Source of the DNA: Candidatus Omnitrophota bacterium
Lineage (GTDB): Bacteria; Omnitrophota; Gorgyraeia; Gygaellales; Profunditerraquicolaceae
Assembly (NCBI GenBank): GCA_043814315.1
Contig: JBDRKE010000010.1
Span: forward strand, 66,896 to 130,895
Length of the DNA: 64,000 nt
Direction: 5' to 3'
In this document: in pieces, positions 19,872-46,747 of the stretch
Layout of the letters: each line of letters begins with the position of its first letter
Numbering within the stretch: the stretch's first letter is position 1
Notes under the pieces: generated by a model
Told to the model about the DNA's origin: nothing
What the model saw: the letters and a program-made list of their open reading frames with translations, nothing else
Databases searched by the model: none
Made by a program: the position numbers and the translations under genes

Positions 19872-20516
19872 TTGATTTTTAAGGAATTCATATTCATATC
19901 TTTACTAAGTCATATCACCCTGTTTAGCCTTTTTAGCCTATCGTTTGGCAACAAAATCCCGGTGGCAGATTATACGGCTGTTTCTTTTTTAGGGCAGCTG
20001 CTGTTTTCTTCGCAGGTAGAGCCTGGCACCCTGACCTTAAATGGCGAAGAGCAGGATTCCGGTAGTTTAAAAACCATCTTCAAAAGAAATTCAGGCAAGA
20101 TATTATTGAAAGAAAACAGCAAGGGCATTCCTTATGGTTTCGATTATTATTTTAAACCCGCACTGGAGCCTGGCATGACAGCCCCGGGAAAGGCATCCAT
20201 GTTCTTAGAGACGGTTTTTACGCCCCCGCCTTTAGTCCGCAAAGATCAGACAGTCATATTCCATCCCATACTGCCTTACAGTTTTCCACTCTATTTCCGA
20301 GATAGGCAGGTGGCCCACGTTGAACTCATTTTCAAGATAGCGCCGGCCGGCCCGAGGGATTTAGTACTTATAAAAAGAAAGATTTCCTCGGGTAATCTGG
20401 AGGTTGATCTTTTGAGTATGCGTTATATCGGACGCTACCTTTTTATCCAGCAGAAAGGCTTTGTTCCCACCGACTGGCAGACCGTCAAGATTGACCTTTC
20501 GGCGAGGCAGGAGTGA
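19872..20516 (+). CDS. membrane-anchored protein with a TonB/TolA-like C-terminal region
   Basis: N-terminal TM segment. The C-terminal KRKISSGNLEVDLLSMRYI resembles the TonB_C SSG..LD motif. Its position after ExbB/ExbD-like genes supports the call. Confidence 0.4.
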   Translation: MIFKEFIFISLLSHITLFSLFSLSFGNKIPVADYTAVSFLGQLLFSSQVEPGTLTLNGEEQDSGSLKTIFKRNSGKILLKENSKGIPYGFDYYFKPALEPGMTAPGKASMFLETVFTPPPLVRKDQTVIFHPILPYSFPLYFRDRQVAHVELIFKIAPAGPRDLVLIKRKISSGNLEVDLLSMRYIGRYLFIQQKGFVPTDWQTVKIDLSARQE

Positions 20517-20517
20517 G

Positions 20518-20739
20518 ATGATCAGCATAGATTTTTCTCTGGCCATCGCTTTATTTAATTTTGTCTTTTTGGCTTTGCTGTTAGCGTTCTGGATATTTAG
20601 TAAAAAGCAAAAGGATAAAGATTTAAGCCTTAATCCCAAATTTATCTGGTTCTGCTCTATCTGCACCTACACCTATGTCAATACGAAAGAGGATGTTATT
20701 TCAACATGCCCACGATGCGGGAATTATAATAAGAGGTAA
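20518..20739 (+). CDS. small membrane-anchored zinc-ribbon protein
   Basis: MISIDFSLAIALFNFVFLALLLAFWIF (TM segment) followed by CSIC...CPRCG. The ATG at 20518 lies 1 nt after the upstream stop. Confidence 0.5.
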   Translation: MISIDFSLAIALFNFVFLALLLAFWIFSKKQKDKDLSLNPKFIWFCSICTYTYVNTKEDVISTCPRCGNYNKR

Positions 20740-20831: not shown

Positions 20832-20859
20832 TTGACCCTTATCTTTTTGTTGCTATAAT
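20832..20859 (+). promoter_or_regulatory. sigma70-like promoter candidate
   Basis: TTGACC (20832..20837), a 16-nt spacer, then TATAAT (20854..20859), about 65 nt upstream of the 20926 start. Confidence 0.5.
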
Positions 20860-20925: not shown

Positions 20926-21132
20926 ATGATTACAGAAATCGGGATCGTAGCCGGCGATATATGGCATTTTTTGGATCAGCACGGAGAAGTCAGCATATCG
21001 TTTCTTGTGCAAGGGTTAGATAAGCCGCGCGATAATGTGCTTATGAGTTTAGGGTGGCTCGCCAGAGAAGGGCATGTGATTGTCCAGCAGGTTGAGGGAG
21101 AATACAAAATAAGTTTAAGAAAAGATGACTGA
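20926..21132 (+). CDS. small winged-helix protein (DUF2582-like)
   Basis: 68 aa. The pattern GDIWHFLDQHGEVSISFLVQGL...LMSLGWLAREGHV fits the ~70-aa winged-helix family. Confidence 0.55.
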   Translation: MITEIGIVAGDIWHFLDQHGEVSISFLVQGLDKPRDNVLMSLGWLAREGHVIVQQVEGEYKISLRKDD

Positions 21133-21541
21133 TAAGCCAATGCAAAAAAAGGGCGTATTGCTGCTTATCGTGATTACAACTATAGTGATAGCTGTTATTT
21201 TGAGTAATGTTATCTTAAATATAATGCTTAGTCAAGGCCGCCTGACCACCTATGAGCTCAACCGCATCCAGGCCAAATATGCGTGTATGGCAGGCATAAA
21301 CTGGGGTTACGAAAACCTAAGAAGCGGGAATTGGGCAAAGCCTGCAGCCGGGGCTTGCGATAGAAGGCCTCTTACGGATGCTGCTTTTCCTTCCTCTATC
21401 CGTAGTATTGATGTATATGTGGCATCTCCAGGTGCCGTTTGCCAAGATGCAGGTGGCACCCAGGTTACACAACCTTGCAGTCCTCCTGCCGGAGCCGAGG
21501 TTTGTATTAGTGTCATTTCAGACTATCTTTACACCCCCTAA
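21125..21541 (+). CDS. PilX/GspK-like minor pilin-like protein
   Basis: Basic N-terminus plus a long hydrophobic helix (KKGVLLLIVITTIVIAVILSNVILNIM), then AKYACMAGINWGYENL, comparable to the PilX_N A..LAEAG block of ORF 43606. It overlaps the winged-helix gene by 8 nt. Confidence 0.45.
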   Translation: MTDKPMQKKGVLLLIVITTIVIAVILSNVILNIMLSQGRLTTYELNRIQAKYACMAGINWGYENLRSGNWAKPAAGACDRRPLTDAAFPSSIRSIDVYVASPGAVCQDAGGTQVTQPCSPPAGAEVCISVISDYLYTP

Positions 21542-21565: not shown

Positions 21566-21598
21566 AAAACTATTATAATCTAAGTAAAACTATTATAA
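21566..21598 (+). promoter_or_regulatory. 13-nt direct repeat pair spaced 20 nt (candidate operator)
   Basis: aaaactattataa occurs at 21566..21578 and 21586..21598. The 8-bp inverted repeat atgtataa/ttatacat follows at 21615..21639. Confidence 0.3.
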
Positions 21599-21652
21599 AA
21601 TTATATCATGTAGTATGTATAATTTTATGGTTTATACATTCTCAGCCAGAAT

Positions 21653-21735
21653 CCTTCGGCAGGCTCAGGACACTTCGCCGAAGAATAACCATAGCAAACC
21701 TTAGGCTTTAGACCGAGGTACCCGTAGGTTGATTT
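21653..21735 (+). repeat. two dispersed-repeat modules in the cluster A leader region
   Basis: The hairpin core ccttcggcaggctcaggacacttcgccgaag (21653..21683) recurs at 36989..37020 inside mtaB. The segment ccttaggctttagaccgaggtacccgtaggttgattttt (21699..21735) recurs at 50899..50938 upstream of rplU. Confidence 0.8.
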
Positions 21736-21778
21736 TTCAAATATAAGTAAGTCTAAGTAAATTTATAGCAAAAAATAC

Positions 21779-21807
21779 TTGACAATACTAGAATCTTATG
21801 TTCTAAT
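21779..21807 (+). promoter_or_regulatory. sigma70-like promoter candidate for pilus cluster A
   Basis: TTGACA (21779..21784), a 17-nt spacer, then TCTAAT (21802..21807), about 70 nt upstream of the 21879 start. Confidence 0.5.
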
Positions 21808-21878
21808 TAAGTTCAATATAGTTTATCATGTTTTTTAATAATTTTGCTTTATCTAGTTAGAAACAGGAGTAAAGCCTG

Positions 21879-22079
21879 ATGACGAGATTGATCGATATTA
21901 ATGAATTAGCCGACTATTTACGATTAAAGAAACAGACCATTTATAATTGGCTGCATCAGTCAAAGATTTCTGGTATTAAGGTGGGTGGGGTGTGGAGGTT
22001 TGACCGTAAAGATGTGGATAGTTGGTTGAAAAGCAGAAGGCGATTGTCAAAAGACTTAAAATCCGGAGAAAAGCAATGA
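21879..22079 (+). CDS. excisionase/MerR-type helix-turn-helix DNA-binding protein
   Basis: 66 aa. LIDINELADYLRLKKQTIYNWLHQSKISGIKVGGVWRFDRKDVDSWL is the HTH_17 pattern. Its stop overlaps the next start (ATGA). Confidence 0.7.
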   Translation: MTRLIDINELADYLRLKKQTIYNWLHQSKISGIKVGGVWRFDRKDVDSWLKSRRRLSKDLKSGEKQ

Positions 22080-23644
22080 GTTCGTTAGGAATATATTTTG
22101 GCCCTAAGTTGATAAAGATTGTGGAATGCCAAGGCCACAATCTCAAAAATGTCACCCAGATTCATCAGTCGACAATCTCTGCGGGAGAATTGGAAGAAAA
22201 AGTCCCCGCTGAAGTTAAAACCATTGAATTCGTCGCTCTTTTTAAAGATGAGCTGCGAAGAAACAAAATTGAAGCCAAACAGGCCACGCTCTCTCTTTCC
22301 GGAAGGGATTTGATTATTCGGACCTTTGAGATACCCATGATTCCGCGCGAAGAAATAGAAAGCGCCGTAAATTTTGAAGCCAAAAAATACATCCCCTTTA
22401 AAGTCGAAGAACTGGTAACGGATTTTCAGCTAAAATTTGACAAGTCCAGCCGTACAAATCTGGTTCTTTTTATGGGGTTAAAAAAAGAGACTTTAGATAA
22501 ATATGTTTCTATTCTTAATCAGTTGAACATCAAGATTCATGCCATCGAATATTCGGCTTTTAGCATGATAAGATGTTTGAAGCTTAGCGGCTTAAGCGAT
22601 AGAGGAACTATAGGGATTTTGGGTGCTGACCTGACAGGGGAGGATGAGGTTAATTTTACGGTTTTGGAAGATGGTTTTCCGCTGTTTAGCCGGGATATTT
22701 CTTTGGCAGGAGGACCTGAAAGCTTAGGCAGGCTAAAAGAGACAGGGCCGTTGGAAGCTTTAGAAAAGCTTAAGACGGAGATCCATGTTTCTTTAGATTA
22801 CTACAACCGTAAATACCCCACCAAAAATATCAAGAAAATATTTCTTATTTCCGACCCTGATAATCGCCTGGAATTGGAAGCGTTTATTAAGGAAACGGGT
22901 TTATTGGTTCAATTTGTTAATACGTCTAAATACTCGAAGGAATCCCCGGCTTACTCTTTAAGTTTTTTAAAAGCCTACAGCAGTTCTTTATCTAAAACGA
23001 TAAGGCTGTTGCTGAAGGTCAATCTATTAGCAGCAAAAGAAAAGTTAAAATTAGCAAAAGAAAAAGCTGTTTTCAAGGAGAGGCTTTCCCTATTTGAGAA
23101 CTTAAGGCTGGATTATAGAGTCCTTTTTCTGGGCCTCTTGTTATGCGTGGGCGCTTACGGTTACGGCGTTTATCAAATGCAACCTTTACGTAAGGACCTT
23201 GTTGATATCCATTCCAGAAGATTGGCGGTTTCCAGCGTAAATGCAGGCGGCACTCAAGAAGAATTAACCGATGCCGCTGTCCAGGCTAAAAGGAGGCTTG
23301 GGTCCTTGGAAAACCTTATTAAGGGGCAAGTGTATCTTACGGAAATATTTAATATCCTGCCCCAGGATCTCCCCAGGGGCCTATGGTTCACTAATTTTTC
23401 TCTTGGCAAGAAAGAGGAAACGGGAACCGAGCTTATCCTGGGAGGCAGGGTGGATCTGGGGGATAGCGATGAAGAATTCAAGACCGTAAACGATTTTCTT
23501 TCGAACCTGGAAAGACGCACGGAATTCGTCAAATACTTTAAACAGGTCAGCCTCATCTCCTTAGAGAATGTACAATTAGCGAATGAGCTCTATCCGTATA
23601 CCCAGTTTGTCATTTCTTGTAAAAGTTATTCGACTGAGGAATAG
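22076..23644 (+). CDS. PilM-PilN fusion protein (type IV pilus assembly)
   Basis: The N-terminal ~330 aa are PilM-like (RTFEIPMIPREEIESAVNFEAKKYIPF). These are followed by VNLL, a TM segment (VLFLGLLLCVGAYGYGVY) and a PilN-like periplasmic domain. Confidence 0.75.
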   Translation: MSSLGIYFGPKLIKIVECQGHNLKNVTQIHQSTISAGELEEKVPAEVKTIEFVALFKDELRRNKIEAKQATLSLSGRDLIIRTFEIPMIPREEIESAVNFEAKKYIPFKVEELVTDFQLKFDKSSRTNLVLFMGLKKETLDKYVSILNQLNIKIHAIEYSAFSMIRCLKLSGLSDRGTIGILGADLTGEDEVNFTVLEDGFPLFSRDISLAGGPESLGRLKETGPLEALEKLKTEIHVSLDYYNRKYPTKNIKKIFLISDPDNRLELEAFIKETGLLVQFVNTSKYSKESPAYSLSFLKAYSSSLSKTIRLLLKVNLLAAKEKLKLAKEKAVFKERLSLFENLRLDYRVLFLGLLLCVGAYGYGVYQMQPLRKDLVDIHSRRLAVSSVNAGGTQEELTDAAVQAKRRLGSLENLIKGQVYLTEIFNILPQDLPRGLWFTNFSLGKKEETGTELILGGRVDLGDSDEEFKTVNDFLSNLERRTEFVKYFKQVSLISLENVQLANELYPYTQFVISCKSYSTEE

Positions 23645-23648
23645 CCCT

Positions 23649-24155
23649 ATGGATGCATTTGAATTCATGACCAAGCATAAAAATAGAATTTTCAATCTTT
23701 TATTTTTCGCCTTATCTCTTTTTATTGCCGGCAAGATTTATAATAAGCAACTCAGAGAGGTGGATCTATTAATCGAAAAGAAGAATTTGGAATCGAAAAG
23801 AAATGAAATATTGGAAAGCATCAGCAGCACCGAGAAAAAAATCGATGCCTATAAGAATCTCTTGGAGAGAAGAGACGTAAGCAATGTTATAAACACCATA
23901 AGCGATATTGCCAGCGCAACGGACGTTAGCATCACCTCCATGAGGCCTAACCATCAAGAAAAATATCCTGAATACGTTAAGATTCCTTATAAATTGGAAC
24001 TGGCGACTGAAAGTTATCATAACCTGGGCCGTTTTCTAAGCCGCCTGGAGAGCCATGAGGACGTTTTTATGGTGGATTCTATTGATATAAGGACACAGGA
24101 ACGCTCTGATGGATTAAAGGCCGCTTTAACCTTAAATTTAGTTGTATATAAATAA
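23649..24155 (+). CDS. PilO-like pilus assembly protein
   Basis: N-terminal TM segment, a coiled coil, then YVKIPYKLELATESYHNLGRFLSRLESHEDVFMVDSIDI, which is the PilO signature layout. Confidence 0.65.
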   Translation: MDAFEFMTKHKNRIFNLLFFALSLFIAGKIYNKQLREVDLLIEKKNLESKRNEILESISSTEKKIDAYKNLLERRDVSNVINTISDIASATDVSITSMRPNHQEKYPEYVKIPYKLELATESYHNLGRFLSRLESHEDVFMVDSIDIRTQERSDGLKAALTLNLVVYK

Positions 24156-24159
24156 CCTT

Positions 24160-24705
24160 ATGGTACAAAATCTCATACTTGGCCGCATAAAAGGCTTAAG
24201 ATTCAAAGGAGAGGGAATTTTTCTAATGATATTTGTCTTGACGGTAGGAGGCTTAATCGGGAGAGATTCATTGGCTGCCTCCGCAACTTATGAGGAGATT
24301 CAGGAATTAGAGAAAGATGAAAACATTTCTCCTCCTGCGCGTATCGAAAGGCCCGTTGTCGAATATCGGTCAGGACACTTAAAGGATCCTTTTCAGCGGT
24401 TCAGGAGCAGCAAAAGGACGCAAGGCCCGCAAGACGCCACAGAAGCTAAATCCGCTAAAAAGAAAAGACCCCTTCCGCCTTTGGAGATTCAAGGGGTAGT
24501 CTGGGGAGGGATTTTTCCTCAAGCCGTCGTTGATAATAAAGTTGTAAAAGTTGGAGATACCATAAAGCTTGAGCAGGCGCAAGAAGAGATAAGAATTATC
24601 AGTATCGATAAAGAAGGGATAACGGTATCTTTCGATGAGCAAAATTATAAATTGTCAGCTCCGGCAGGAGGCGACACTTCTTTCAAAATACCTTCAGGAG
24701 GATAA
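24160..24705 (+). CDS. PilP-like small periplasmic protein
   Basis: Signal/TM segment and a C-terminal beta-domain (LEIQGVVWGG..AVVDNKVVKVGD...IISIDKEGITVSF), positioned immediately before the secretin gene. It parallels ORF 46748..47137. Confidence 0.4.
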   Translation: MVQNLILGRIKGLRFKGEGIFLMIFVLTVGGLIGRDSLAASATYEEIQELEKDENISPPARIERPVVEYRSGHLKDPFQRFRSSKRTQGPQDATEAKSAKKKRPLPPLEIQGVVWGGIFPQAVVDNKVVKVGDTIKLEQAQEEIRIISIDKEGITVSFDEQNYKLSAPAGGDTSFKIPSGG

Positions 24706-24706
24706 A

Positions 24707-26284
24707 ATGAAAAAAATCTTTAGGCTGGGTGTATCTTTTTTTATGGTGATTTTTTACCTGTTCCTTCCTAAGCTGAATGCTTATCCAGAGGCCCCTTTGC
24801 TGGAGGCGGATAGTCCTGCGGAAATCTCCATGGATTTCAAGGACGCCAACCTCAAGGATGTCTTAAAAGTATTTTCTATCCAGTCCGGCATGAATTTTAT
24901 CTCTTCTGAAGCCGTGCAAGACAGGAAGATAACCCTCTATCTGGATAAGGTCCCTATCGAACAGGCTATGGATAAACTGTTTAAAGCCAACAATCTTTCC
25001 TATGAATATTACAGGGATTCCAATATATTTATCGTTAAGGAATGGGGAAAATTACAGATTGAAACCCAAACCCGCGTATTTTATCTTAAGCACGCGACGG
25101 TTTCCACCTCTTCTTTAAAACAGGAGATGCACGATATTCTGGTCAGTCAAGATAGCGGTGGAAATGCTGGTGCAGGAAAATGGAAGCAGGAAGAGGCTGC
25201 CGGCATTTCGACGGTCATCAAAAAGTTACTTTCTGACGCAGGCTCCATGATTGAAGATTATCGCACCAACAGTCTTATTATTACGGATACACCCCAACGG
25301 TTGCAGGTTATTGCCGGGGTCATTGCTTCCCTGGATGTGCCTGTTCCGCAGGTCCTCTTGGAAGTGGAGATGTTAGATGTCAGTAAGAATAGCGTGGATA
25401 AATTAGGATTGAAATGGCCTACGACATTAGCGCAGTTGACCGTACCCGGATCCCGTATGACTTCGTTTCCTTTCTCGGGAAATAAAGGAACCTCAGGAAA
25501 TAGCTATACTATTGATCCCAATGAGGGTGCTTTCGGAGGTCCGGGCGACGGATGGGATTTTCCAGCGTGGGGGGCGTCTCATTTCGGTCCGTCAATTCTC
25601 ACTATTATAGGCACAACCCTGACCCTGGATTTTTTAAGAACCCAAACCGACACCAAATTTTTGGCTCGGCCCCGGATCCTGACCTTGAATAATGAAACCG
25701 CGGAGATCCGCATTGCTACGAATGAATCCATCGGCGTAACCACTACCACTACTTCTGCCGGAGGGAACACCGGTTCATCCACAGCCGAGGCAGAAAGAGT
25801 AGAAACCGGGGTGATTTTAAGAGTAACGCCTCAGATCAATCTGGAGACCGGCGAAATCACCATGTTTATTTACCCTAAAGTTTCAGAGGCCGTGCAAGGA
25901 AGCACGATAACCAGCGGAGGTCAGACAAGCAGATTCAGGGATCCGGAAGTGCGCAGCACCAAGTCTTTGGTAAAGGTTAAGGATGGGGAAACGATTGTTA
26001 TCGGCGGGCTTCTGCGCGATGAATTCAGCCAGGTTACGGAAAAATTACCCATTTTAGGGGATCTCCCCTTTATAGGGGCCTTATTCAGGCATAAGGGAGG
26101 CGATAGCGATAAGAATAAACAACGCGAACTGCTTGTTTTTATTACGCCTCATATCATGAAAGATTCGGAAATAAAACTTGTTCAAAGGGAGCAAGTAAAG
26201 TTGTCTGGCAGGGAGCAGAGTACGATTTCAGCACTGAGTCGAGAGGTGGCTATCAATTCCAGCATGAACCGTTTTGATCAATAA
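24707..26284 (+). CDS. secretin (PilQ/GspD family)
   Basis: Signal peptide, an N0-like domain (ISMDFKDANLKDVLKVFS...) and a C-terminal secretin domain (RPRILTLNNETAEI..., VKDGETIVIGGL, LPILGDLPFIGALFR). Confidence 0.9.
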   Translation: MKKIFRLGVSFFMVIFYLFLPKLNAYPEAPLLEADSPAEISMDFKDANLKDVLKVFSIQSGMNFISSEAVQDRKITLYLDKVPIEQAMDKLFKANNLSYEYYRDSNIFIVKEWGKLQIETQTRVFYLKHATVSTSSLKQEMHDILVSQDSGGNAGAGKWKQEEAAGISTVIKKLLSDAGSMIEDYRTNSLIITDTPQRLQVIAGVIASLDVPVPQVLLEVEMLDVSKNSVDKLGLKWPTTLAQLTVPGSRMTSFPFSGNKGTSGNSYTIDPNEGAFGGPGDGWDFPAWGASHFGPSILTIIGTTLTLDFLRTQTDTKFLARPRILTLNNETAEIRIATNESIGVTTTTTSAGGNTGSSTAEAERVETGVILRVTPQINLETGEITMFIYPKVSEAVQGSTITSGGQTSRFRDPEVRSTKSLVKVKDGETIVIGGLLRDEFSQVTEKLPILGDLPFIGALFRHKGGDSDKNKQRELLVFITPHIMKDSEIKLVQREQVKLSGREQSTISALSREVAINSSMNRFDQ

Positions 26285-26286
26285 CC

Positions 26287-28008
26287 ATGCCGAAAGACAG
26301 ATATTTAAGATTAGGGGAACTCCTCATTAAAGAGGGGCTGATCAATACCGGTCAGTTAGAAAAAGCCATCAGCGCCCAAAGGCACGAGGGTGGCCGATTA
26401 GGAGAGGTTTTGGTCAGGTTGGGGTTTATCAGGGAGGACCAGGTCGTTGCTGTTCTGGGCAAGCAACTTAATATTCCTTATTTTTCTTTGGGCACGGGGA
26501 TGTTAAAACCCGCCATGGATCAGGGGCTGGAACGCCTCATCTCCGAGGATTTTGCCCTTAAGAATTCAGTCCTTCCCTTATCGCGCACCTTAAGGTCTAT
26601 TACCGTGGCGATGTCCGACCCCCTGGACCTTATCCTGGTTGATAATTTGAGAAAATTGACGGGGTGCGAAATCAATCCTGTCATTGCCACCAAATCCGAT
26701 ATCGCTAAAGCCGTCGAGGCCTTTTATGGGAAGTCCGCTATGCTGAAAGAGGCGGTGGAGGCCAGTTATGACCTTTCCAAAGTCGAAGCGCCATCGGGTG
26801 ACGCGGAAACCGCTGACCAGGAGCTCTCACTCGATAAATTAATTGCCCGCGCTGAAGAGGCTCCGGTGGTGAAATTGGTAGATTTGATCGTGCGTCAGGC
26901 GATTGATGAAAGGGCTTCGGATATCCATATCGAGCCGTTCAAAGACAGGATTTCGCTTCGGTATCGAGTCGACGGCAAGCTCTATGAGATTCCTCCTCCG
27001 GCCAAACACCTGCACATGCCGATTATATCGCGCGTCAAAATTTTGTCAAAATTAGATATTGCGGAGAAGCGGCTTCCGCAAGACGGTGCCTTCTTAGTCA
27101 GGATAAACGAAAAACCGATAGATATAAGAGTTTCCACCATACCCACCATCTATGGGGAGAAGGTCGTTATGAGAATACTGGATAGGAGCGCCGTAGTTTT
27201 GGATATTAATGTTTTAGGGTTCGGCCCCAAACAACTGGAAGACATGCGCCGCTCGATCAATGCTCCTTACGGACTGGTATTCTTAACCGGGCCTACGGGT
27301 AGCGGGAAAACCACGACCCTTTACGCCATATTAAACGAAATAAAAAATCCCACAAAAAACATAGTGACTGTCGAGGATCCGGTCGAATACAAATTAGAAG
27401 GCATTAATCAAGTCCAGGTCAAGCCTGAGATCGGGCTTACCTTTGCTGCGGCACTGCGCAGTTTCTTAAGGCAGGACCCGGATATCATGTTAGTCGGCGA
27501 GGTAAGGGATTTAGAAACGGCAGAGATTTGCATCCGTTCTGCTTTAACCGGACACCTCGTGCTAAGCACACTGCACACTAATGATGCGCCTTCAGCCGTG
27601 AACCGCCTCATGGATATCGGCATTGAGCCTTACATGCTGGCGCCATCTTTACTGTGCGTAGTGGGGCAGCGTCTCTTAAGGAAACTTTGCCCTGAATGCA
27701 AAGAGGCTTATGAGCCCGCCCAGGAAGAGCGTGACAGCGTAAAGTTAAAAGCAGATTTGATCTACCGGCCGAAAGGCTGTACGAAGTGCAACAATACGGG
27801 GTTTAACGGCCGGGTCTGTATCGCCGAGGTTATGATAGTCAACCAGGAGATTCAGGACTTGATTAACCAGAAGGCGCCTTTTCAGAAAACAAGGGCTGCC
27901 GCCAAGGCGCACGGGATGGAGACGCTTTATGAATCGGCCATAAAGAAGGTCGAACAGGGGGTTACCTCCCTTGAAGAGGCCCTTTCAGTTACGCTGGGTG
28001 CTGATTAA
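26287..28008 (+). CDS. GspE/PilB family type II/IV secretion ATPase
   Basis: 573 aa. T2SSE_N-like N-terminus, Walker A motif GPTGSGKTTT, Walker B/Asp box, His box, and a tetracysteine motif (CPECK...CTKCNNTG). Confidence 0.93.
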   Translation: MPKDRYLRLGELLIKEGLINTGQLEKAISAQRHEGGRLGEVLVRLGFIREDQVVAVLGKQLNIPYFSLGTGMLKPAMDQGLERLISEDFALKNSVLPLSRTLRSITVAMSDPLDLILVDNLRKLTGCEINPVIATKSDIAKAVEAFYGKSAMLKEAVEASYDLSKVEAPSGDAETADQELSLDKLIARAEEAPVVKLVDLIVRQAIDERASDIHIEPFKDRISLRYRVDGKLYEIPPPAKHLHMPIISRVKILSKLDIAEKRLPQDGAFLVRINEKPIDIRVSTIPTIYGEKVVMRILDRSAVVLDINVLGFGPKQLEDMRRSINAPYGLVFLTGPTGSGKTTTLYAILNEIKNPTKNIVTVEDPVEYKLEGINQVQVKPEIGLTFAAALRSFLRQDPDIMLVGEVRDLETAEICIRSALTGHLVLSTLHTNDAPSAVNRLMDIGIEPYMLAPSLLCVVGQRLLRKLCPECKEAYEPAQEERDSVKLKADLIYRPKGCTKCNNTGFNGRVCIAEVMIVNQEIQDLINQKAPFQKTRAAAKAHGMETLYESAIKKVEQGVTSLEEALSVTLGAD

Positions 28009-29237
28009 TGCCAAAATTTTTCTACATTGCCAGGAATAAGCTCGGCAAGAAAGATACCGGAGCCGAAGAGGCTGCCACACAGGAAGAAGCCATTCTTAGG
28101 TTGCAGTCTAGGGATCTGGTGGTCATCAGCATCCTACCTGCCTTTAAAGAATCCGGGGTCAACCAGGAAGTCATATCAAAGGCGAAGTTTAAACCAAAGC
28201 ACTTCCGTATTTCAGGGGAAGACCTGGTTCTTTTCTGCAGGCAGTTAGCCACGCTTTTAGGCGCAGGCGTAACGATCTTGAAGAGTCTGGATATTATTTC
28301 GCAACAGGTATCCAGCCGCAGGCTTTATGAGGTTATCAAAGAGTTACAGAAAAATATGGAAGCAGGATTAAGTTTTCATGAAGCTATATCAAAGCACCGT
28401 TTGATATTTTCTGAATTGTGGGTTAATCTTGTGGAAAGCGGGGAGGCCTCCGGAAATTTAGCCATGGTTTTGAGCCGCCTGGCCAGCTACTTAGAGAGAA
28501 ATGCGGCGTTTAAGAAAAAGATTGTTTCTGCTTTGATTTACCCTACCATCTTGATGCTGGTCGGGACAGGCGCACTTTTGTTCTTGACCGTTAAGATTAT
28601 ACCTACCTTTGCCGTCTTATTTCAGGGTTTCGATGTAAAGATGCCCTTTTTGACATCCGTGCTTATAGCCGTAAGCGGCTTTATGAGAAAATACCTGCTC
28701 ACTATTTTTGTCTTAGGGATTATCGGGTTCTTCATTTTTAAAAATTATATTTCTACAAAGCAGGGCCGAAGAGCCTTTGAGAAAATTTTGTTCAATCTTC
28801 CGGTCTTCGGAGAATTTTTTCGTGTGCTGATTGTGGAGCGCTTCACTTCTGAAATGGCCACTCTCGTTGAAAGTGGCGTGCCCATATTGTATTCTTTGGA
28901 AATCACGGAGCATAGCGTCGGAAATCTGACGCTGGGGGAGATCATCGGCAGAATCAAAGACGATGTGCGCGAAGGCAAACCTTTGTCCCAGCCGCTGGAC
29001 AGAAGCGGATTCTTCGAGCCTATGGCCGTACAAATGGTGACGATCGGAGAAGAAATCGGAGAATTATCCAGTATGTTTAAGAAATTGAATTCTTTTTATC
29101 AGGAATACGTGGATACGTTTTTGACCCGGTTTACGGTCATGTTTGAGCCGATAATGCTTATTTTTATGGGTGTCGTGATCGGCATGATGGTGGTGGGGAT
29201 GTTTTTACCTATATTCCAGCTTGTCCAGATACGCTAG
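28008..29237 (+). CDS. GspF/PilC family platform protein
   Basis: 409 aa with two T2SSF repeats and three TM segments. The start overlaps the ATPase stop. Confidence 0.92.
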   Translation: MPKFFYIARNKLGKKDTGAEEAATQEEAILRLQSRDLVVISILPAFKESGVNQEVISKAKFKPKHFRISGEDLVLFCRQLATLLGAGVTILKSLDIISQQVSSRRLYEVIKELQKNMEAGLSFHEAISKHRLIFSELWVNLVESGEASGNLAMVLSRLASYLERNAAFKKKIVSALIYPTILMLVGTGALLFLTVKIIPTFAVLFQGFDVKMPFLTSVLIAVSGFMRKYLLTIFVLGIIGFFIFKNYISTKQGRRAFEKILFNLPVFGEFFRVLIVERFTSEMATLVESGVPILYSLEITEHSVGNLTLGEIIGRIKDDVREGKPLSQPLDRSGFFEPMAVQMVTIGEEIGELSSMFKKLNSFYQEYVDTFLTRFTVMFEPIMLIFMGVVIGMMVVGMFLPIFQLVQIR

Positions 29238-29568: not shown

Positions 29569-29964
29569 ATGAAAAGAGGTTTTACGTTACTAGAACTGAT
29601 CATTGTCATCATCGTCGTCGGTATATTAGCTACCCTTGGTTTTGTCCAGTATACAAGCATGATTGAAAAAGGCCGAAAAGCAGAGGCCAGAAGCATTTTG
29701 GGGACGTTACGTCAGTTAGAGGTTGTGCGGTATCAGGAAACAGGAGCTTATAGTAATTTGGCTGGCTTAAGTACGGGTGTACCTGACGGCGCATGTGCAG
29801 CCACACATTATTTTTTCTACGCCTGCGCCGCTGGAACAGGCACCTGCACAGCTACTAGATGTATAGGTGTTGTAGGTAAACAGCCAGGCGTTCCTGCCGC
29901 AGATGTCTATACCATTACGTTGAGTGTTGACGGAAATTTCAACGGAACAGGCAATTGGCAGTAA
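29569..29964 (+). CDS. type IV pilin-like protein (paralog 1)
   Basis: MKRG|FTLLELIIVIIVVGILA prepilin motif. The C-terminal domain has four Cys. Confidence 0.85.
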   Translation: MKRGFTLLELIIVIIVVGILATLGFVQYTSMIEKGRKAEARSILGTLRQLEVVRYQETGAYSNLAGLSTGVPDGACAATHYFFYACAAGTGTCTATRCIGVVGKQPGVPAADVYTITLSVDGNFNGTGNWQ

Positions 29965-29988
29965 GGATATAAAAAAGACAGCATTATC

Positions 29989-30399
29989 TTGGAGAGAAAG
30001 AAGAAGAAAAAAGGCTTTACAATGTTAGAGCTAGTTATAGTCATTGTGGTCGTGGCTATACTAGTGAGTTTAGGGCTTGTTCAGTTTACTTCCGTGATGG
30101 AAAAGGGCCGTAAAGCAGAAGCCAGAAGCATCCTGGGGACGCTGCGTCAGTTAGAGATTTCGCGATACGAAGAGATGCTCACGTATAGTAATTTAGCAGG
30201 ATTAGGCATAGCTGTACCTGACGGCGCATGTGCAGCCACGCATTATTTTTTCTACGCCTGCGCCGCTGGAACAGGCACCTGCACGGCTACTAGATGTATA
30301 GGTGCTGTAGGTAAACAGCCAGGCGTTCCTGCCGCAGATGTTTATACCATCACGCTGGATGTTAACGGAAATTTCTCGGGAACAGGCAATTGGCAGTAA
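29989..30399 (+). CDS. type IV pilin-like protein (paralog 2)
   Basis: TTG start with leader MERKKKKKG|FTMLELVIVIVVVAILV. The last ~186 nt are nearly identical to paralog 1. Confidence 0.85.
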   Translation: MERKKKKKGFTMLELVIVIVVVAILVSLGLVQFTSVMEKGRKAEARSILGTLRQLEISRYEEMLTYSNLAGLGIAVPDGACAATHYFFYACAAGTGTCTATRCIGAVGKQPGVPAADVYTITLDVNGNFSGTGNWQ

Positions 30400-32111: not shown

Positions 32112-32187
32112 GGGGCAGTAGCTCAGCTGGGAGAGCGTCGCGTTCGCATCGCGAAGGTCGGGAGTTCGATCCTCCTCTGCTCCACCA
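32112..32187 (+). tRNA. tRNA-Ala (anticodon CGC), CCA encoded
   Basis: The cloverleaf was folded by hand. Acceptor stem ggggcag/ctgctcc includes the G3:U70 Ala identity pair. The anticodon loop ttCGCat and T-loop ttcgatc are present, with discriminator A followed by CCA. Confidence 0.93.
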
Positions 32188-43025: not shown

Positions 43026-43613
43026 ATGAAAAACTATTTATCCCAGGGCTGCGGATTCACGATTATTGAAGTTCTTTGCTCAGTTACCGTCGCGAGTTTC
43101 ATTGTTGGGGTTTTGTTTTACGCCTTAAGCAGCGCAGAGTATTCTCGGGCTGCCAGTGCCGCTAAGATCGAGGTGCAATCTGAGGTCAGGCGCAGCATCG
43201 ATTGGATTGTCAAGGACGTGCGTCAGGCCGTCAGTTGGGAAATCGCCGACGCTGACAACAGCCCGTCAAATACACACATTAAATTCCGGAAGGTCGAGGG
43301 TTGGAATACGACGGCAGAGACGTTTCTTTTAAGCGCCGATTACACCGAATACACGTACGATTCCGGTGATGATAGGATCACCCGCAGGCTCAGCGACTCA
43401 GATGATGAGACGAAACAGACATGGTCTTTAAACCATATTCAGCGAGCGCCCTTTTATACTTTGGATGGCTCGGGTAATGTTGTTGCTCTGAATGGCGGTG
43501 ATTTGCTCACCAGTAGAAAGCTGGTTATCGATATTAGGGGCAGTAAGCCCATTAAGGGCTCTTTAAATGCCACCGCAACGCTTATTGAAGAGGTGAAAAT
43601 AAGAAATGAATAA
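43026..43613 (+). CDS. minor pilin-like protein (PilW/GspJ-like size)
   Basis: MKNYLSQGCG|FTIIEVLCSVTVASFIVGV. 195 aa. Confidence 0.7.
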   Translation: MKNYLSQGCGFTIIEVLCSVTVASFIVGVLFYALSSAEYSRAASAAKIEVQSEVRRSIDWIVKDVRQAVSWEIADADNSPSNTHIKFRKVEGWNTTAETFLLSADYTEYTYDSGDDRITRRLSDSDDETKQTWSLNHIQRAPFYTLDGSGNVVALNGGDLLTSRKLVIDIRGSKPIKGSLNATATLIEEVKIRNE

Positions 43614-44478
43614 ACGCAGAGGAATCGTTTTAGTCTTTGCCCTTATGGTCATGCTCGTCCTGTCTATTTTATTGACTTCCTTTTATTTTCAGAGTGCCAA
43701 CGAAGGAAAGCTGGCGATGGTCTATGAAAATTCAACGCGCGCTTTTTGGTTAGCCGAGGCAGGTATGGCCCAGGCCTTGAGCACTTTTAGCGGGCCAACG
43801 TCATTCAGCGGCTTTATAGATGATGCCAATCATGCGTATAACGTGCAGGTGAGTTTTTTGTCAGGTATATACTATACTATTGTTTCTACCGGTACGGTCA
43901 CATCCCCGGCCACAGGAACGACGAATAGGGCTATAAGCGCCACGGTAAGAACAGGAGTGATTGACCCCACGAAATTTAAATATGGCATCGAAACAACCAC
44001 GGATTTGATTATCAAGGGGAGCGTGGATATCAATCCCAGCGGCAGCTGGAAAGAATACTCCACATTGGATTTTGCGGATCTGTTCGGAATAACGAAGGCG
44101 GAGATGAAGGATAATGCCACGCATGTTTATGCATCGGATACTTTCGATGGTCAGCCCGTTGACGGCATCACTTGGGTGGATGTTGATGACTCCATGAATA
44201 TCGCGGGAAATCTCGTCGGTAGTGGTATTTTAGTTATCAACGGAAATGTGCATTTCTCAGGGACCGTTCAATTTAACGGCATCATATATGTCATCGGAAA
44301 ATTGACGATGACGGGAACGGTGGATATATTTGGAAGCGTTCTGGCGGAGAGCAGTACCACCGTAGACACAGAACTCAAAGGAAACGTCGGGATCAATTAC
44401 AGCCTATCGGAGATAACGAATGCCCTAGGTTCCGTTCAATATATAACGAAAGAAATGGTTTCCTGGCAGGAAATATAA
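43606..44478 (+). CDS. PilX/GspK-like minor pilin-like protein
   Basis: MNKRRGIVLVFALMVMLVLSILLTSFY...STRAFWLAEAGMAQAL is the PilX_N pattern. 290 aa. Confidence 0.65.
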   Translation: MNKRRGIVLVFALMVMLVLSILLTSFYFQSANEGKLAMVYENSTRAFWLAEAGMAQALSTFSGPTSFSGFIDDANHAYNVQVSFLSGIYYTIVSTGTVTSPATGTTNRAISATVRTGVIDPTKFKYGIETTTDLIIKGSVDINPSGSWKEYSTLDFADLFGITKAEMKDNATHVYASDTFDGQPVDGITWVDVDDSMNIAGNLVGSGILVINGNVHFSGTVQFNGIIYVIGKLTMTGTVDIFGSVLAESSTTVDTELKGNVGINYSLSEITNALGSVQYITKEMVSWQEI

Positions 44479-44483
44479 TAGTC

Positions 44484-45512
44484 ATGAATATGAAATGGCT
44501 CAATGGGTTTAAGGAAAGAGTCGCCAAAGAAAGATTTACGTTCGGCCTGGATATCGGCAGCCGGCAGATCAAGATCGTCAAGTTGAAATTATTCAAAGAC
44601 GCTATTGAGCTGTGCGGTTTTGAGGTCGTGCCGGTGCAGCTGGATGTGGGAGCGGTTCTTAAAAAGTTCAAGCATTCTTTAGGTATCTCTTATGCCAACG
44701 TCGGCGTCTGCGGTTCCTCAACCGTGATAAGGTATGTGGATTTTCCCCTGATGAATCAGGCCGAGCTAAAACAGGCGTTGCGGTTTGAGGCACAAAAACT
44801 CATCCCTTTTGCCTTGAGTGAAGTCATTATAGACGGCTGCATTTTAAGGGAAAACGTAAAGGATAATAAAATGCTTGTTTTGATTGCAGCGGTCAAAAAA
44901 GACCTGATCCAGCAACGTCTGAAACTGCTGGAAGAGTCAGGATTAAAGGTTAAAATTATTGATATTGATTCGGTTGCGCTGGTTAATACCTTTAATCATA
45001 ATTACGCGCAGGATGAATTTATGAAGAATAAGACGATCGGCCTGCTTAACATCGGGTCTTCTTTAAGCAGCCTCAATATATTGGAAAATGGTGTTCCCCG
45101 TTTAAGCAGGGATATCCAGATAGCCGGTAATAATTTTACCCAGAAACTTGTCGATGCCTTCGGTATTGATTTTAAAGCCGCTGAAGAATTAAAGCTCAAT
45201 CCGGATAACGATAAAAAAGACAAAGTTGCCGTAGGCCTAGAGACGGTGCTGGCCAGCCTGGCAGGGGAAGTCAGGGTGTCTTTTGATTATTACGAAAGCC
45301 AAAACACCACTTCCGTCTCAAAGATTTTCTTAAGCGGGGGCGGCAGCCAGTTCATCGGTTTCAAGGATAGGCTCTCTGACCTTTTGGGGATAGACGTGCA
45401 GTACTGGGACTCTTTAAAACACATAACTATTTCAAATGAAATTGATTCTCAAAAAGTGAATAATCTGTCCGGCCAGTTAGCGGTGGCGGTAGGCCTGGCA
45501 TTGCGGGAGTGA
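44484..45512 (+). CDS. pilM: type IV pilus assembly ATPase-fold protein PilM
   Basis: 342 aa. Contains FGLDIGSRQIKIVKL, LRFEAQKLIPF and LSGGGSQ, the actin-like fold of the PilM family. Confidence 0.88.
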   Translation: MNMKWLNGFKERVAKERFTFGLDIGSRQIKIVKLKLFKDAIELCGFEVVPVQLDVGAVLKKFKHSLGISYANVGVCGSSTVIRYVDFPLMNQAELKQALRFEAQKLIPFALSEVIIDGCILRENVKDNKMLVLIAAVKKDLIQQRLKLLEESGLKVKIIDIDSVALVNTFNHNYAQDEFMKNKTIGLLNIGSSLSSLNILENGVPRLSRDIQIAGNNFTQKLVDAFGIDFKAAEELKLNPDNDKKDKVAVGLETVLASLAGEVRVSFDYYESQNTTSVSKIFLSGGGSQFIGFKDRLSDLLGIDVQYWDSLKHITISNEIDSQKVNNLSGQLAVAVGLALRE

Positions 45513-45554
45513 CGCCGAAAAAATTATTTCAGGGAATTTGGAATAGGTTAAAAG

Positions 45555-46130
45555 ATGATCAAGATTAATTTATTGCCGGAAGAATTCAACGCTAAGGCCG
45601 CAAGTCATAAAGTCAGGGTTGTTATCGAGGTCAAGTATTTAATTTATTTTATACCTCTTACTTTGGTTACCCTGCTTCTTTTTCACTCCTATCTGGGCGC
45701 GTTGCTGGTGGCCAGGTATAATCAGATAGCCGGGCTTAATAAAAAATGGCAAAGCCTCGAACCCGAGAGAAAAAAACTAGAAATTTTTAATAAAGAGAAT
45801 ACCTTGTACACACAGGATTCTTCTGCAGTTAAGACATTAGTTGAGCAGAGGGTAGTTTGGTTCGAAAAATTAAATGCCCTTAGCAATAGCCTTATGCCCG
45901 GTATTTGGTTTACCGAGCTTTCTATCGCTCCCAGAATTTTTACATTAAAGGCCTCGGTTGTTTCTTTGCAGAAAGAAGAGATGGGTATTATCAAGAAATT
46001 TATCGATAATCTAAAAACTGATGCCGCTTTCTTTAAGAACTTTAACAGCCTGGAGTTAAGTTCCGTACAGAGAAGAACTATGGGTAGTTTTGATGTGCTG
46101 GATTTCACTTTAGCCGGGACATTGAATTAA
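45555..46130 (+). CDS. pilN: type IV pilus assembly protein PilN
   Basis: MIKINLLPEE start, a single TM segment and ~190 aa, located directly after pilM. Confidence 0.8.
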   Translation: MIKINLLPEEFNAKAASHKVRVVIEVKYLIYFIPLTLVTLLLFHSYLGALLVARYNQIAGLNKKWQSLEPERKKLEIFNKENTLYTQDSSAVKTLVEQRVVWFEKLNALSNSLMPGIWFTELSIAPRIFTLKASVVSLQKEEMGIIKKFIDNLKTDAAFFKNFNSLELSSVQRRTMGSFDVLDFTLAGTLN

Positions 46131-46131
46131 G

Positions 46132-46746: not shown

Positions 46747-46747
46747 G

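Follow-up and report, generated by a model that had tools for sequence, protein, structure and literature searches.

The 64,000-nucleotide stretch of Omnitrophota DNA analysed here (the window) was found to carry a gene cluster, 21879..29237, that is most likely one operon for a type IV filament machine of the T4aP/T2SS-like kind and that opens with a gene for a 66-aa HTH_17 protein, followed by a gene for a PilM-PilN fusion (PilMN). The interpretation somewhat favoured here, which draws on analogy, is that the HTH protein would be the operon's own BldC/Xis-like autoregulator, acting via phased repeats, and that PilMN would be a GspL-like scaffold. No member of the Omnitrophota has been cultured; most of these bacteria are ultra-small, and they probably depend on hosts. 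Their type IVa pili are considered to have a central part in attachment or predation (PMC10066038), and we know of no account of how these pili are controlled. The features of the region are listed below.

20926..21541, + strand: conserved upstream neighbours, both syntenic in 64 loci
20926..21132, + strand: DUF2582 winged-helix protein, 75% median identity, overlapping the next gene by 8 nt
21125..21541, + strand: 138-aa protein with a PilX/GspK-like N-terminus and a C-terminal DYxYTP
21566..21603, + strand: distal repeat element, AAAACTATTATAA twice (21566-21578 and 21586-21598), on either side of CTAAGTAAA
21745..21764, + strand: proximal tandem direct repeats, candidate HTH operator, AAGTAAGTCT at 21745-21754 and AAGTAAATTT at 21755-21764
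21779..21807, + strand: promoter core, -35 TTGACA at 21779-21784, 17-nt spacer, TG-extended -10 TGTTCTAAT at 21799-21807
21879..22079, + strand: HTH_17 gene, leading cistron of the operon, 66-aa ORF with ATG start and TGA stop
22076..22079, + strand: ATGA stop/start overlap (translational coupling), HTH TGA on pilMN ATG
22076..23644, + strand: PilM-PilN fusion gene, 522 aa, PilM_2 at residues 5-212 and PilN at residues 424-516
About residues 1-305 of the fusion: actin-like PilM module
Residues 314-318 of the fusion, nt 23015-23029: KVNLL junction motif
Residues 347-366 of the fusion, nt 23114-23173: transmembrane helix
Residues 421-516 of the fusion: ferredoxin-like PilN domain, preceded by a coiled coil (predicted model)
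23649..29237, + strand: remaining operon, tightly packed
23649..24155, + strand: PilO
24142..24705, + strand: T2SSB-like protein in the PilP position
24707 (probable start)..26284, + strand: secretin
26287..28008, + strand: PilB ATPase with MshEN-type N-terminus
28008..29237, + strand: PilC/GspF platform

A survey of gene neighbourhoods, which the sequence-only reading had proposed as a check on the HTH gene, was carried out among relatives. A PilMN relative was encoded in 278 species genomes, and the best 80 of the 278 loci, whose PilMN matches were all full length, were inspected. The fusion was present in all 80 of these species-level Omnitrophota loci, and the HTH gene lay directly upstream of it in 79, the exception being a contig end; one MAG carried a second copy with identical HTH-PilMN synteny. 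The linkage persisted at HTH identities of 59% and 55% and was gone at 54% or below. The order uvrA-TPR-exbBD-...-DUF2582-orf138-HTH-pilMN was the same in the chromosomes of related genomes, and the locus L206, from which DUF2582 was absent, retained HTH-PilMN. The only Rfam match was a tRNA-Ala gene located 10 kb downstream; the leader region had none. In the literature, no paper was found that ties an excisionase-family or HTH_17 protein to pilM, and neither the fusion nor the HTH gene was found described in Omnitrophota.

The HTH gene has an AGGAG Shine-Dalgarno sequence at 21865-21869. Nucleotide identity among 78 orthologs was 0.84, 0.91 and 0.50 at codon positions 1, 2 and 3, respectively; therefore, the gene is real, and its reading as a spurious small ORF was rejected. 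Judging from this alignment, the gene is under strong purifying selection. The median identity of the HTH protein (78.8%) was equal in level to that of the PilB ATPase (77.1%) and far above that of PilMN (45.7%). The 66-aa ORF and its ATGA overlap with the next gene, both described in the sequence-only reading, were confirmed from the ORF coordinates and from the family scores: the protein matched PF12728 (HTH_17) with 57.2 bits (cutoff 27) and TIGR01764 ("excise") with 50.8 bits (cutoff 28.8). The ATGA overlap was found in 52 of 80 sequences (79 loci and the window), and a TAATG overlap was found in most of the others; in L204, a 79-nt gap separated the two genes, with no overlap. Overlaps of the ATGA type are common in bacterial operons and mean little alone. 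The pilMN Shine-Dalgarno sequence, GGAGA, sits within the final HTH codons (S-G-E-K).

The HTH protein is a single-domain winged helix with a pI of 10.2, and most of its homologs are 64-89 aa long. In an AF2 model (pLDDT 81.5), a basic C-terminal helix, residues 43-61, lay outside the HTH core. The best Foldseek matches of this model in the PDB were the BldC-DNA complexes 6ama and 6amk (rmsd 1.5-1.9 A; TM 0.71-0.80, normalised to target), followed by RacA, the GIsul2 excisionase, Pukovnik Xis and RdfS; CbpM (3ucs) and DafA (9dvi) were also among the fold matches. By the model, the protein would be of the BldC type, namely, a single wHTH domain of MerR-like fold without a coiled coil or an effector domain. 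Its score for the BldC family itself (NF033787) was 17.2 bits, under the cutoff of 77, and that for the MADS defence protein MAD1 (NF047737) was 65.9 bits, under the cutoff of 80; the context here is a pilus operon instead. A PDB sequence search with the protein or its profile gave no significant match, Pukovnik Xis (E of about 0.07-0.09) and chance antibody chains being all that appeared.

The promoter was identified by comparative alignment, and its conservation at the DNA level is a new finding of this work. The 78-nt promoter core had a mean pairwise identity of 72%, compared with 26% in a control stretch, and the anchored alignment gave the consensus taAGTAAGTnTaaGTAAgtnTAtAtAAAAAAACACTTGACAAaaTaAgtntnTTATGTTTTAATTaA. 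The arrangement TTGACA-N17-TyTAAT was common to 67 of 72 loci, and the core of the window had a unique exact match within the window. Its -35 box is perfect and the TG extension is present; the -10 box is non-consensus, with T or C at position 2. Transcription is predicted to start near 21814. A consensus promoter scanner did not list this promoter because the scanner demands an A as the second base of the -10 hexamer. An A-tract lies immediately upstream of the -35 box.

Upstream of this core, the repeat AAGTAAGTnT was found with an exact spacing of 10 bp, phase-locked at 23 and 33 bp upstream of the TTGACA -35 box. In the window, the RGTAAR cores of the proximal repeats begin 33 and 23 bp upstream of the -35 T; across loci, the units were located at 23, 33 and 43 bp from the -35 box. 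The distance between adjacent units was exactly 10 bp in 62 of 86 pairs, and the rest were mostly longer gaps between proximal and distal units. The distal element matches the phylum consensus (C)TATTATAATCTAAGTAAGTCTATTATAA (families D1-D3), and in 49 of 67 loci a GTAAGTnTATTATAA-like unit preceded the -35 box by 80-130 bp. In the whole 64-kb window, TAAGTAAG was found once, at the proximal repeats; when 762 kb of loci were scanned, 76 of the 93 tandem-motif matches fell within 400 bp upstream of an HTH gene. The repeats were absent upstream of DUF2582 and elsewhere in the window, and they were essentially absent elsewhere in the 762 kb of loci. A scan of metagenome contigs for AAGTAAGTNTRAGTAAG was uninformative on the regulon: among the at least 120 stretches listed, eight were HTH promoters, and the other matches listed were mostly (AAGT)n microsatellites or chance.

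The repeats are assigned to the HTH protein because of adjacency, co-conservation and analogy. The protein would form a head-to-tail array on the 10-bp-spaced AAGTAAGTnT repeats abutting its own -35 box, with related units located about 100 bp further upstream, and binding at its own promoter would make the operon autoregulated. Such binding could repress transcription by occluding the UP/-35 region or could activate it in a face-specific manner; negative feedback is slightly favoured as the sign of regulation. Considering that HTH and pilMN overlap and that the pilMN Shine-Dalgarno sequence lies in HTH codons, the output of the regulator is tied to production of the machine, and this coupling could act as a built-in feedback on operon dosage. 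Covariation between the protein and the repeats was not informative because hardly any variation exists in either the recognition helix or the repeats. The only hints came from two lineages: in the divergent L204, both were changed; in L206, the recognition helix was kept and the AAGTAAGT units were degenerate.

The sequence-only reading had suggested a dedicated autoregulator, and this suggestion was strengthened by a candidate operator and by a structural precedent in the BldC/Xis-like fold; the repeats could also be occupied by another factor. It is fairly unlikely, yet worth weighing, that DUF2582 or a global regulator binds the repeats and that the HTH protein has other DNA targets or an architectural role. 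DUF2582 is a second conserved winged helix, located 750 bp upstream and as widely syntenic and conserved as listed above; the recognition helix of L206 was retained despite its degenerate units; and small HTH_17 proteins lead unrelated housekeeping operons elsewhere, for example, ACP-SMC. However, a position directly before the HTH gene is the usual site for an autoregulator, the lack of repeats upstream of DUF2582 and elsewhere in the loci and the window argues for the HTH protein, and 10-bp direct repeats fit the binding mode of its nearest structural relatives. For DUF2582 in particular, the retention of HTH-PilMN in L206, which is without DUF2582, speaks against such a role.

An autoregulator is usually needed in far fewer copies than a structural subunit. 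The coupling of the HTH gene to pilMN, together with a conservation above that of a typical operon-specific regulator, may leave room for a role of the protein as a partner of other proteins. At its strongest, this would mean that the HTH protein is mainly a stoichiometric partner at the pilus base, which binds the degenerate PilM or tethers the machine to DNA, and no classical transcription factor; this was judged distinctly unlikely. The conserved translational coupling, the PilB-like level of conservation far exceeding that of PilMN and the basic helix outside the HTH core are all consistent with it, as is the presence of RacA, CbpM and DafA among the fold matches: CbpM and DafA, which have MerR-like folds, bind chaperones, and RacA tethers the chromosome. 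However, it leaves the conserved phased repeats at the HTH protein's own promoter unexplained, and it fits poorly with the strongly basic character of the protein and with the gap in place of an overlap in L204. Moreover, among the homologs listed (PilMN 503-531 aa; most HTH proteins 64-89 aa), there was no Rosetta-stone fusion of HTH with PilMN.

The two roles could conceivably be combined. The HTH protein would then be both the regulator and a stoichiometric partner of the PilM that is without an ATP site, and assembly of PilMN would titrate the HTH protein off the repeats; this proposal is speculative and is considered quite improbable. If it were true, the pilus operon would be transcribed according to how far the machine had been assembled, a checkpoint of the FlgM/sigma-28 or partner-switching kind. 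We know of no earlier description of such a checkpoint in type IV filaments.

The HTH_17 family is broad, and chromosomal regulators, BldC among them, belong to it; "excisionase" is therefore a family name only. The label excisionase-like given in the sequence-only reading holds as a family match, and, in agreement with that reading, no mobile-element context was found around the gene. It is very improbable, and effectively refuted, that the HTH gene was left behind by a mobile element inserted upstream of the pilus genes, as the remnant of an excisionase (recombination directionality factor): the family name TIGR01764 "excise", the weak Pukovnik Xis match and the tRNA-Ala gene downstream point that way, but the annotated neighbours, which span about 15.9-31.9 kb of the window and, in related loci, the 6 kb preceding HTH, include no integrase or mobile-element gene, the chromosomal synteny is identical in related genomes, and the gene is under strong purifying selection with its coupling to pilMN conserved. 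The context does not fit a functional excisionase either, the annotated neighbours being uvrA, TPR, exbBD, DUF2582 and pilus genes, with no integrase among them.

The second gene of the operon proved to be a PilM-PilN fusion, in agreement with its original description, by its PilM_2 and PilN matches and by its fold, for which PilM structures were the best matches. The Pfam PilM_2 profile (PF11104) gave 50.7 bits (cutoff 27), covering only the first 212 of 340 profile positions; the score for TIGR01175 (PilM) was 70.9 bits, below the cutoff of 133, and that for PF05137 (PilN) was 23.0 bits, barely over the cutoff of 22.8. The PilN part has the KVNLL motif, one transmembrane helix and, in the model, a beta-alpha-beta domain at residues 421-516. 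In a Foldseek search, the fusion model matched the PilM structures 3jc8_Ma, 5eou and 2ych best (E of 5e-18 to 6e-17), and GspL/EpsL structures matched more weakly (1e-8); the predicted actin-like (ASKHA) fold thus appears nearest to solved PilM structures.

A second cluster in the same window (cluster B) has PilM and PilN as separate genes and no preceding HTH cistron. The fusion aligned to both of these split proteins (E of 8e-6 in the PilN region). The N-terminal PilM-binding motif of PilN was kept exactly at the junction, where the fusion has KVNLL and cluster B PilN has MIKINLLP, and the junction sequence LKVNLLAAKEK was conserved among fusion homologs. Therefore, the PilM-PilN contact is hard-wired in the fusion, as had been supposed.

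That the fusion originated from an assembly or frameshift error of the contig, a doubt raised with its first description, has a practically negligible probability: it was only a prior suspicion, to which the separate genes of cluster B could be added, and it is refuted by at least 120 protein clusters that are full-length fusion homologs (97-100% coverage, with Omnitrophota names where named), by the conserved junction and by an ORF that was uninterrupted in 120 independent clusters (503-531 aa) and in the genome loci (507-533 aa), one locus being cut at a contig end.

The loss of nucleotide-binding motifs from the PilM module had not been mentioned in the sequence-only reading. Where PilM has LDIGS (phosphate-1 DxG), the fusion has IYFGP, in which Y7, F8 and G9 are invariant in the family; where PilM has GGGS (adenosine GGG), it has SDPD, a position that varies within the family. 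Compared with split PilM, the module also has a 23-residue deletion. In this motif-level comparison, the canonical ATP-binding signatures (DxG and GGG) were absent from the PilM module of the fusion. Apparently, ATP binding was lost. The replacement of DxG and GGG makes the fusion GspL-like; GspL itself is not known to bind nucleotide. PilMN joins an actin-like module of the PilM type to a full PilN, with its NLL anchor motif and transmembrane helix and its predicted coiled coil and ferredoxin-like domain. Like GspL, it would serve as a scaffold that works without nucleotide and is permanently attached to its periplasmic partner.

The system forms a compact and testable module, comprising a 66-aa protein, a promoter of about 70 bp whose repeats are phase-locked and an operon as its defined output, which is amenable to study in vitro or in a heterologous host without cultivation of the organism. 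If the analogy is correct, the BldC/Xis-type class of small wHTH proteins, which bind direct repeats head-to-tail, would gain a member in another phylum and a pilus machine as a target. The fusion, a natural PilM-type protein with GspL architecture and an apparently lost nucleotide site, bears on the divergence of the T4P and T2SS platforms.

Among known systems, the nearest to the HTH protein is Streptomyces BldC (68 aa, MerR-like wHTH), which is likewise single-domain, of the same size and without a dimerisation or effector domain. On direct repeats of 9 bp, BldC assembles head-to-tail into cooperative multimers (PMC5859096), and the tandem 10-bp repeats found here appear to fit this mode of binding. 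However, the two proteins share only about 25% of their residues, and their sites differ, AATTxxxx(C) for BldC and AAGTAAGTnT here. Furthermore, BldC controls development pleiotropically through many targets, and its gene does not head its target operon, whereas the HTH gene leads its operon. Excisionases (lambda-type Xis, Pukovnik Xis 4j2n, RdfS and Apl) share the HTH_17/TIGR01764 domain, the fold and the direct-repeat spacing with the HTH system. RDFs bind direct repeats that are spaced by one turn of the helix (PMC7498355), and Apl of phage 186 doubles as a transcriptional regulator. Unlike excisionase genes, the HTH gene has no integrase or mobile element in the neighbourhoods examined and is inherited with a chromosomal pilus operon across the phylum.

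The sequence-only reading had stated that PilM and PilN are normally separate. This holds for cluster B, but a single chain has precedents in GspL and, apparently, in the Amuc_1101 family. In a review, PilM plus PilN was equated with GspL (PMC4471445). Like the fusion, GspL is a single chain in which an actin-like domain in the cytoplasm is linked through a transmembrane helix to a ferredoxin-like domain in the periplasm, the part that pairs with GspM/PilO. However, the fusion is nearer to PilM/PilN than to GspL in sequence and fold, it retains the PilN-type NLL motif at the junction, and no GspL/T2SSL family was among its Pfam or NCBIfam matches. The Amuc_1101 family of Akkermansia (NF045709, 608-aa model) is apparently another single-chain PilM plus PilN of the PVC group: cluster B PilM matched its positions 68-348, and cluster B PilN matched positions 355-474, weakly (E of 7e-4). 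The fusion itself scored 48.4 bits against NF045709, for which the cutoff is 650; therefore, the fusion and Amuc_1101 are different families. We know of no report of a leading HTH gene in the Amuc_1101 cluster. Finally, the split PilM and PilN of Thermus (2ych), of Pseudomonas (5eou) and of cluster B have the same domains and the same PilN docking motif, whereas in the fusion these are covalently joined; those of cluster B stand without an HTH cistron, whereas the fusion is preceded by one.

The HTH gene and its ATGA overlap with a PilM-PilN gene, both claimed in the sequence-only reading, were present in the sequence. The HTH ORF (21879..22079) starts with ATG, preceded by AGGAG at 21865-21869, and its TGA stop shares bases with the ATG of pilMN, the fusion gene (ATGA at 22076..22079). 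The 66-aa product scored 57 bits against Pfam HTH_17 (cutoff 27) and 51 bits against TIGR01764, "excisionase family DNA-binding" (cutoff 28.8); in the profile search, it scored under the curated cutoffs of the MAD1 and BldC families. The genes downstream of PilMN in this operon (cluster A) follow nearly without gaps between them:

Genes of cluster A downstream of PilMN
23649..24155, PilO
PilP position, between PilO and the secretin, T2SSB-like protein
probable start 24707, secretin
26287..28008, PilB/GspE-type ATPase
end 29237, PilC/GspF platform protein

PilB and GspE models gave similar scores for the ATPase, each under its own cutoff, and no PilT was found within cluster A, which may thus be either a T4aP or a T2SS-like system. 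The N-terminus of the ATPase carries an MshEN-type cyclic-di-GMP-binding motif (NF053729, E 5.5e-18), which points to second-messenger control of this machine. PilC is followed by five prepilin-type genes and then tRNA-Ala (32112..32187). The first two, tandem paralogous pilin genes of 131 and 136 aa (29569..30399), start after a 330-nt gap behind pilC and have nearly identical C-terminal halves (…ACAATHYFFYACAAGTGTCTATRCIG.VGKQPGVPAADVYTITL…GNWQ); the other three lie downstream.

A genome scan with one genome per species detected PilMN relatives in 278 genomes, and the best 80 loci, all essentially full-length matches, were examined in detail; all related sequences used for comparison came from metagenomes. 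The sequence-only reading had proposed a neighbourhood survey as the check on HTH synteny, and in 79 of the 80 loci an HTH ortholog was found directly upstream of PilMN on the same strand; in the sole exception, L044, the contig end falls inside PilMN. The stop-start overlap was ATGA in 52 of 80 sequences (79 loci and the window) and TAATG in most others, and the S/T-G-E/D codons conserved at the end of the HTH gene contain the pilMN Shine-Dalgarno sequence, GGAGA. The same long-range synteny surrounds a second copy, found in the WOR_2 SM23_72 bin (uvrA, TPR protein, exbB, exbD, orf214, DUF2582, orf135, HTH, PilMN, PilO, T2SSB-like, secretin).

HTH protein residues 1-55 were nearly invariant. 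Median identity to the window protein was 78.8% for HTH, 77.1% for PilB, 50.6% for the secretin, 45.7% for PilMN and 34.6% for PilO. Nucleotide identity in the HTH gene was 0.84/0.91/0.50 by codon position, so purifying selection acts on the encoded protein rather than on the nucleic acid as a DNA or RNA element. The wider HTH_17 family comprised 4931 representatives at E<=1e-3. The next gene still encoded a PilM_2 protein (522 or 510 aa) for relatives at 59% and 55% identity, whereas no PilM_2 gene followed those at 54%, 51% and 44% (three neighbourhoods checked); thus, the limit of the PilMN-linked orthogroup lies at roughly 55% identity. Another lineage (L209/L210, 3001..3487) encodes an 80-aa HTH_17 protein with 44% identity to that of the window, and its gene runs into the start of an acyl-carrier-protein gene that precedes SMC; the arrangement, a small HTH_17 gene translationally coupled as the leader of a housekeeping operon, may occur more widely.

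When upstream regions were aligned on the -35 hexamer, a promoter consensus common to 67 of 72 loci was obtained, taAGTAAGTnTaaGTAAgtnTAtAtAAAAAAACACTTGACAAaaTaAgtntnTTATGTTTTAATTaA. Its tandem AAGTAAGTnT units and an A-tract precede a perfect TTGACA, which a 17-nt spacer separates from the TG-extended -10 box, TyTAAT. The window has these elements at the following positions:

Promoter and repeat elements upstream of the HTH gene
21566-21603, distal repeat element
21745-21754, proximal repeat unit AAGTAAGTCT
21755-21764, proximal repeat unit AAGTAAATTT
21779-21784, -35 box
21799-21807, TG-extended -10, TGTTCTAAT

Mean pairwise identity was 72% in the 78-nt promoter core, compared with 26% in a control stretch 170-250 bp upstream and 50% at third codon positions of the HTH gene. 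The RGTAAR cores begin exactly 23, 33 or 43 bp before the T of TTGACA, the closest one at 23 bp in 48 loci and 33 bp in another 13. Neighbouring units are spaced by exactly 10 bp in 62 cases, and displaced arrays shift by one helical turn. The promoter pattern is unique within the 64-kb window, where TAAGTAAG occurs once. The related loci, 762 kb in all, gave 93 tandem matches: 76 fell in the 400 bp before the HTH gene, and the remaining 17 were degenerate; in a metagenome scan with the repeat pattern, microsatellites swamped the matches. In 49 of 67 loci, a related distal element, (C)TATTATAATCTAAGTAAGTCTATTATAA, precedes the -35 box by 80-130 bp, and in the window it accounts for the direct repeats noticed earlier from the sequence.

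Many loci (e.g. L007, L009, L011, L060, L063) share a short GC-rich motif, TTyCCGWCGn, whose distance to the proximal AAGTAAGT repeats downstream is nearly constant (~25-30 bp), within AT-rich, otherwise unconserved DNA; its closest match in the window is ACCGAGGTACCCGTAGG (~21700-21720). A different factor may bind there. At about 140 nt, the stretch separating the distal from the proximal repeats (21604..21744) is longer in the window than in most relatives (about 60-80 nt), possibly owing to an insertion, and holds a 10-nt inverted repeat, ATCCTTCGGC/GCCGAAGAAT (21651-21660 / 21677-21686), without a T-run behind it.

The AlphaFold model of the HTH protein (pLDDT 81.5) consists of a strand, two helices, a two-stranded wing and a C-terminal helix. 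Its nearest fold is BldC in DNA complexes (6ama, 6amk; rmsd 1.5-1.9 A), followed by RacA, GIsul2 excisionase, Pukovnik Xis and RdfS. BldC, a 68-aa MerR-like protein, forms cooperative multimers head-to-tail on 9-bp direct repeats (PMC5859096), and recombination directionality factors such as Apl have as binding sites direct repeats spaced by one helical turn and can double as transcriptional regulators (PMC7498355). The HTH protein, single-domain and basic (pI 10.2), is of this kind and therefore probably acts as a repeat-binding autoregulator. It would autoregulate the operon by head-to-tail polymerisation along the 10-bp repeats that adjoin its promoter's -35 box, perhaps with a bridge to the distal element, and translational coupling would tie its production to that of the machine.

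Another factor might bind the repeats, the obvious candidate being the DUF2582 winged-helix protein, which is co-syntenic with the HTH operon; moreover, L206 retains the HTH recognition helix despite its degenerate repeats. L204 differs in recognition helix and repeats alike, a single case where protein and DNA site may have changed together. Two loci are too few to argue from covariation either way. L204 (3960..4300), from a GC-richer divergent lineage, has ELNIYTWL instead of KQTIYNWL, no AAGTAAGT repeats and a 79-nt gap between HTH and pilMN in place of the overlap. Alternatively, the HTH protein could be chiefly a protein partner of the PilM module, in keeping with translational coupling, extreme HTH conservation and fold matches to CbpM, DafA and RacA; however, this leaves the phased repeats unexplained, and no HTH-PilMN fusion was seen among the homologs listed. 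A relic excisionase is effectively refuted by the fixed place in the operon and by annotated neighbours that include no integrase or other mobile-element genes, the wider context being housekeeping genes.

Autoregulation by the HTH protein from the 10-bp repeats is therefore, we infer, the best-supported reading. The dedicated autoregulator of the sequence-only reading gains from the phylum-wide leading position, the phased repeats at its own promoter and the BldC/Xis-like fold, while repeat binding is presumed from adjacency, co-conservation and analogy. The operon promoter has a strong -35 box, TG extension and A-tract, yet a conserved non-consensus -10 box; the DUF2582 promoter of the window uses TATAAT. 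We lean slightly towards negative feedback.

DUF2582 (68 aa) is a second small winged-helix protein, and its gene overlaps by 8 nt that of a 138-aa protein whose N-terminus resembles PilX/GspK and whose C-terminus carries DYxYTP (window 20926..21541, also L081-L083 and L204). Median identity of DUF2582 across loci is 75%, and in 64 loci the HTH promoter closely follows the pair, so that two small wHTH genes, both coupled to a gene for a pilus component, are neighbours. A near-consensus TG-extended promoter, TTGACC-16-TATAAT, lies at 20832-20859. Between ExbBD/TonB-like genes and DUF2582, a 92-aa ORF (20461..20739), whose start overlaps the preceding ORF, has a zinc-ribbon-like CxxC…CxxC C-terminus and a weak LITAF-like match, and is kept in 31 loci (61% median identity).

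The PilMN ORF (22076..23644, 522 aa) matched Pfam PilM_2 at residues 5-212 and PilN at 424-516. The best 120 homologs were 503-531 aa long with 97-100% query coverage (95% for P0101), and almost all named entries were Omnitrophota/Omnitrophica. Residues 70-257 aligned to PilM (E 7e-19) and 409-497 to PilN (E 8e-6) of cluster B, the second pilus cluster. The junction is conserved (consensus LKVNLLAAKEK). The N-terminal peptide of PilN docks on PilM in solved complexes; since KVNLL (residues 314-318) corresponds to the N-terminus MIKINLLPEE of cluster B PilN, the join falls exactly at this docking peptide. The AlphaFold model (pLDDT 79) comprises the following modules:

Modules of the PilMN model
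residues 1-305, actin-like module
then, in order, linker helix, transmembrane helix and coiled coil
residues 421-516, ferredoxin-like domain

The best fold matches were PilM structures (3jc8, 5eou, 2ych; about 1e-17 to 1e-18), and GspL/EpsL cytoplasmic domains matched more weakly (1e-8). The fusion, for which a frameshift or sequencing error had been named as the possible refutation, is genuine: full-length homologs, full-length genome loci and the conserved junction rule out an artefact.

Cluster B (43026..48912) has canonical separate PilM (44484..45512, DIG and GGG motifs intact) and PilN (45555..46130), then PilO, a small protein and a secretin. It lacks both the HTH gene and the AAGTAAGT repeats and serves as an internal control for the fusion. 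Aligned with this PilM as reference, the fused family has IYFGP (Y7, F8 and G9 invariant) instead of the phosphate-1 motif LDIGS, a variable SDPD-like stretch instead of the adenosine motif GGGS, and lacks a 23-residue segment; the sequence-only reading did not mention these changes. Because LDIGS and GGGS mark the nucleotide-binding signatures of ASKHA ATPases, the PilM module is probably now a nucleotide-independent scaffold, and the predicted nucleotide independence together with the single chain would make PilMN GspL-like in its working.

Nearly all Omnitrophota carry type IVa pilus clusters (PMC10066038). In the literature search, no report was found of a leading HTH gene, promoter repeats or the fusion in Omnitrophota, nor any paper connecting excisionase-family or HTH_17 proteins with pilM. 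The HTH locus offers a clean, testable module for an uncultured phylum and does not overturn expectations. Berry and Pelicic (PMC4471445) treat the PilMN complex as the orthologue of GspL, which resembles the fusion in its single-chain architecture, but PilMN stays PilM/PilN-like in sequence and fold. Amuc_1101 (NCBIfam model, 608 aa) apparently also holds PilM plus PilN within one chain, with positions 68-348 matched by cluster B PilM and 355-474, weakly, by cluster B PilN; PilM-PilN fusions therefore have precedents. Both components thus belong to recognised classes, namely small wHTH proteins of the BldC/Xis type and single-chain platform proteins of the GspL type; new are the operon-leading, translationally coupled, phylum-wide putative regulator of a pilus machine, its phase-locked, very strongly conserved operator-like array, and the degenerate nucleotide motifs in a PilM-type module.
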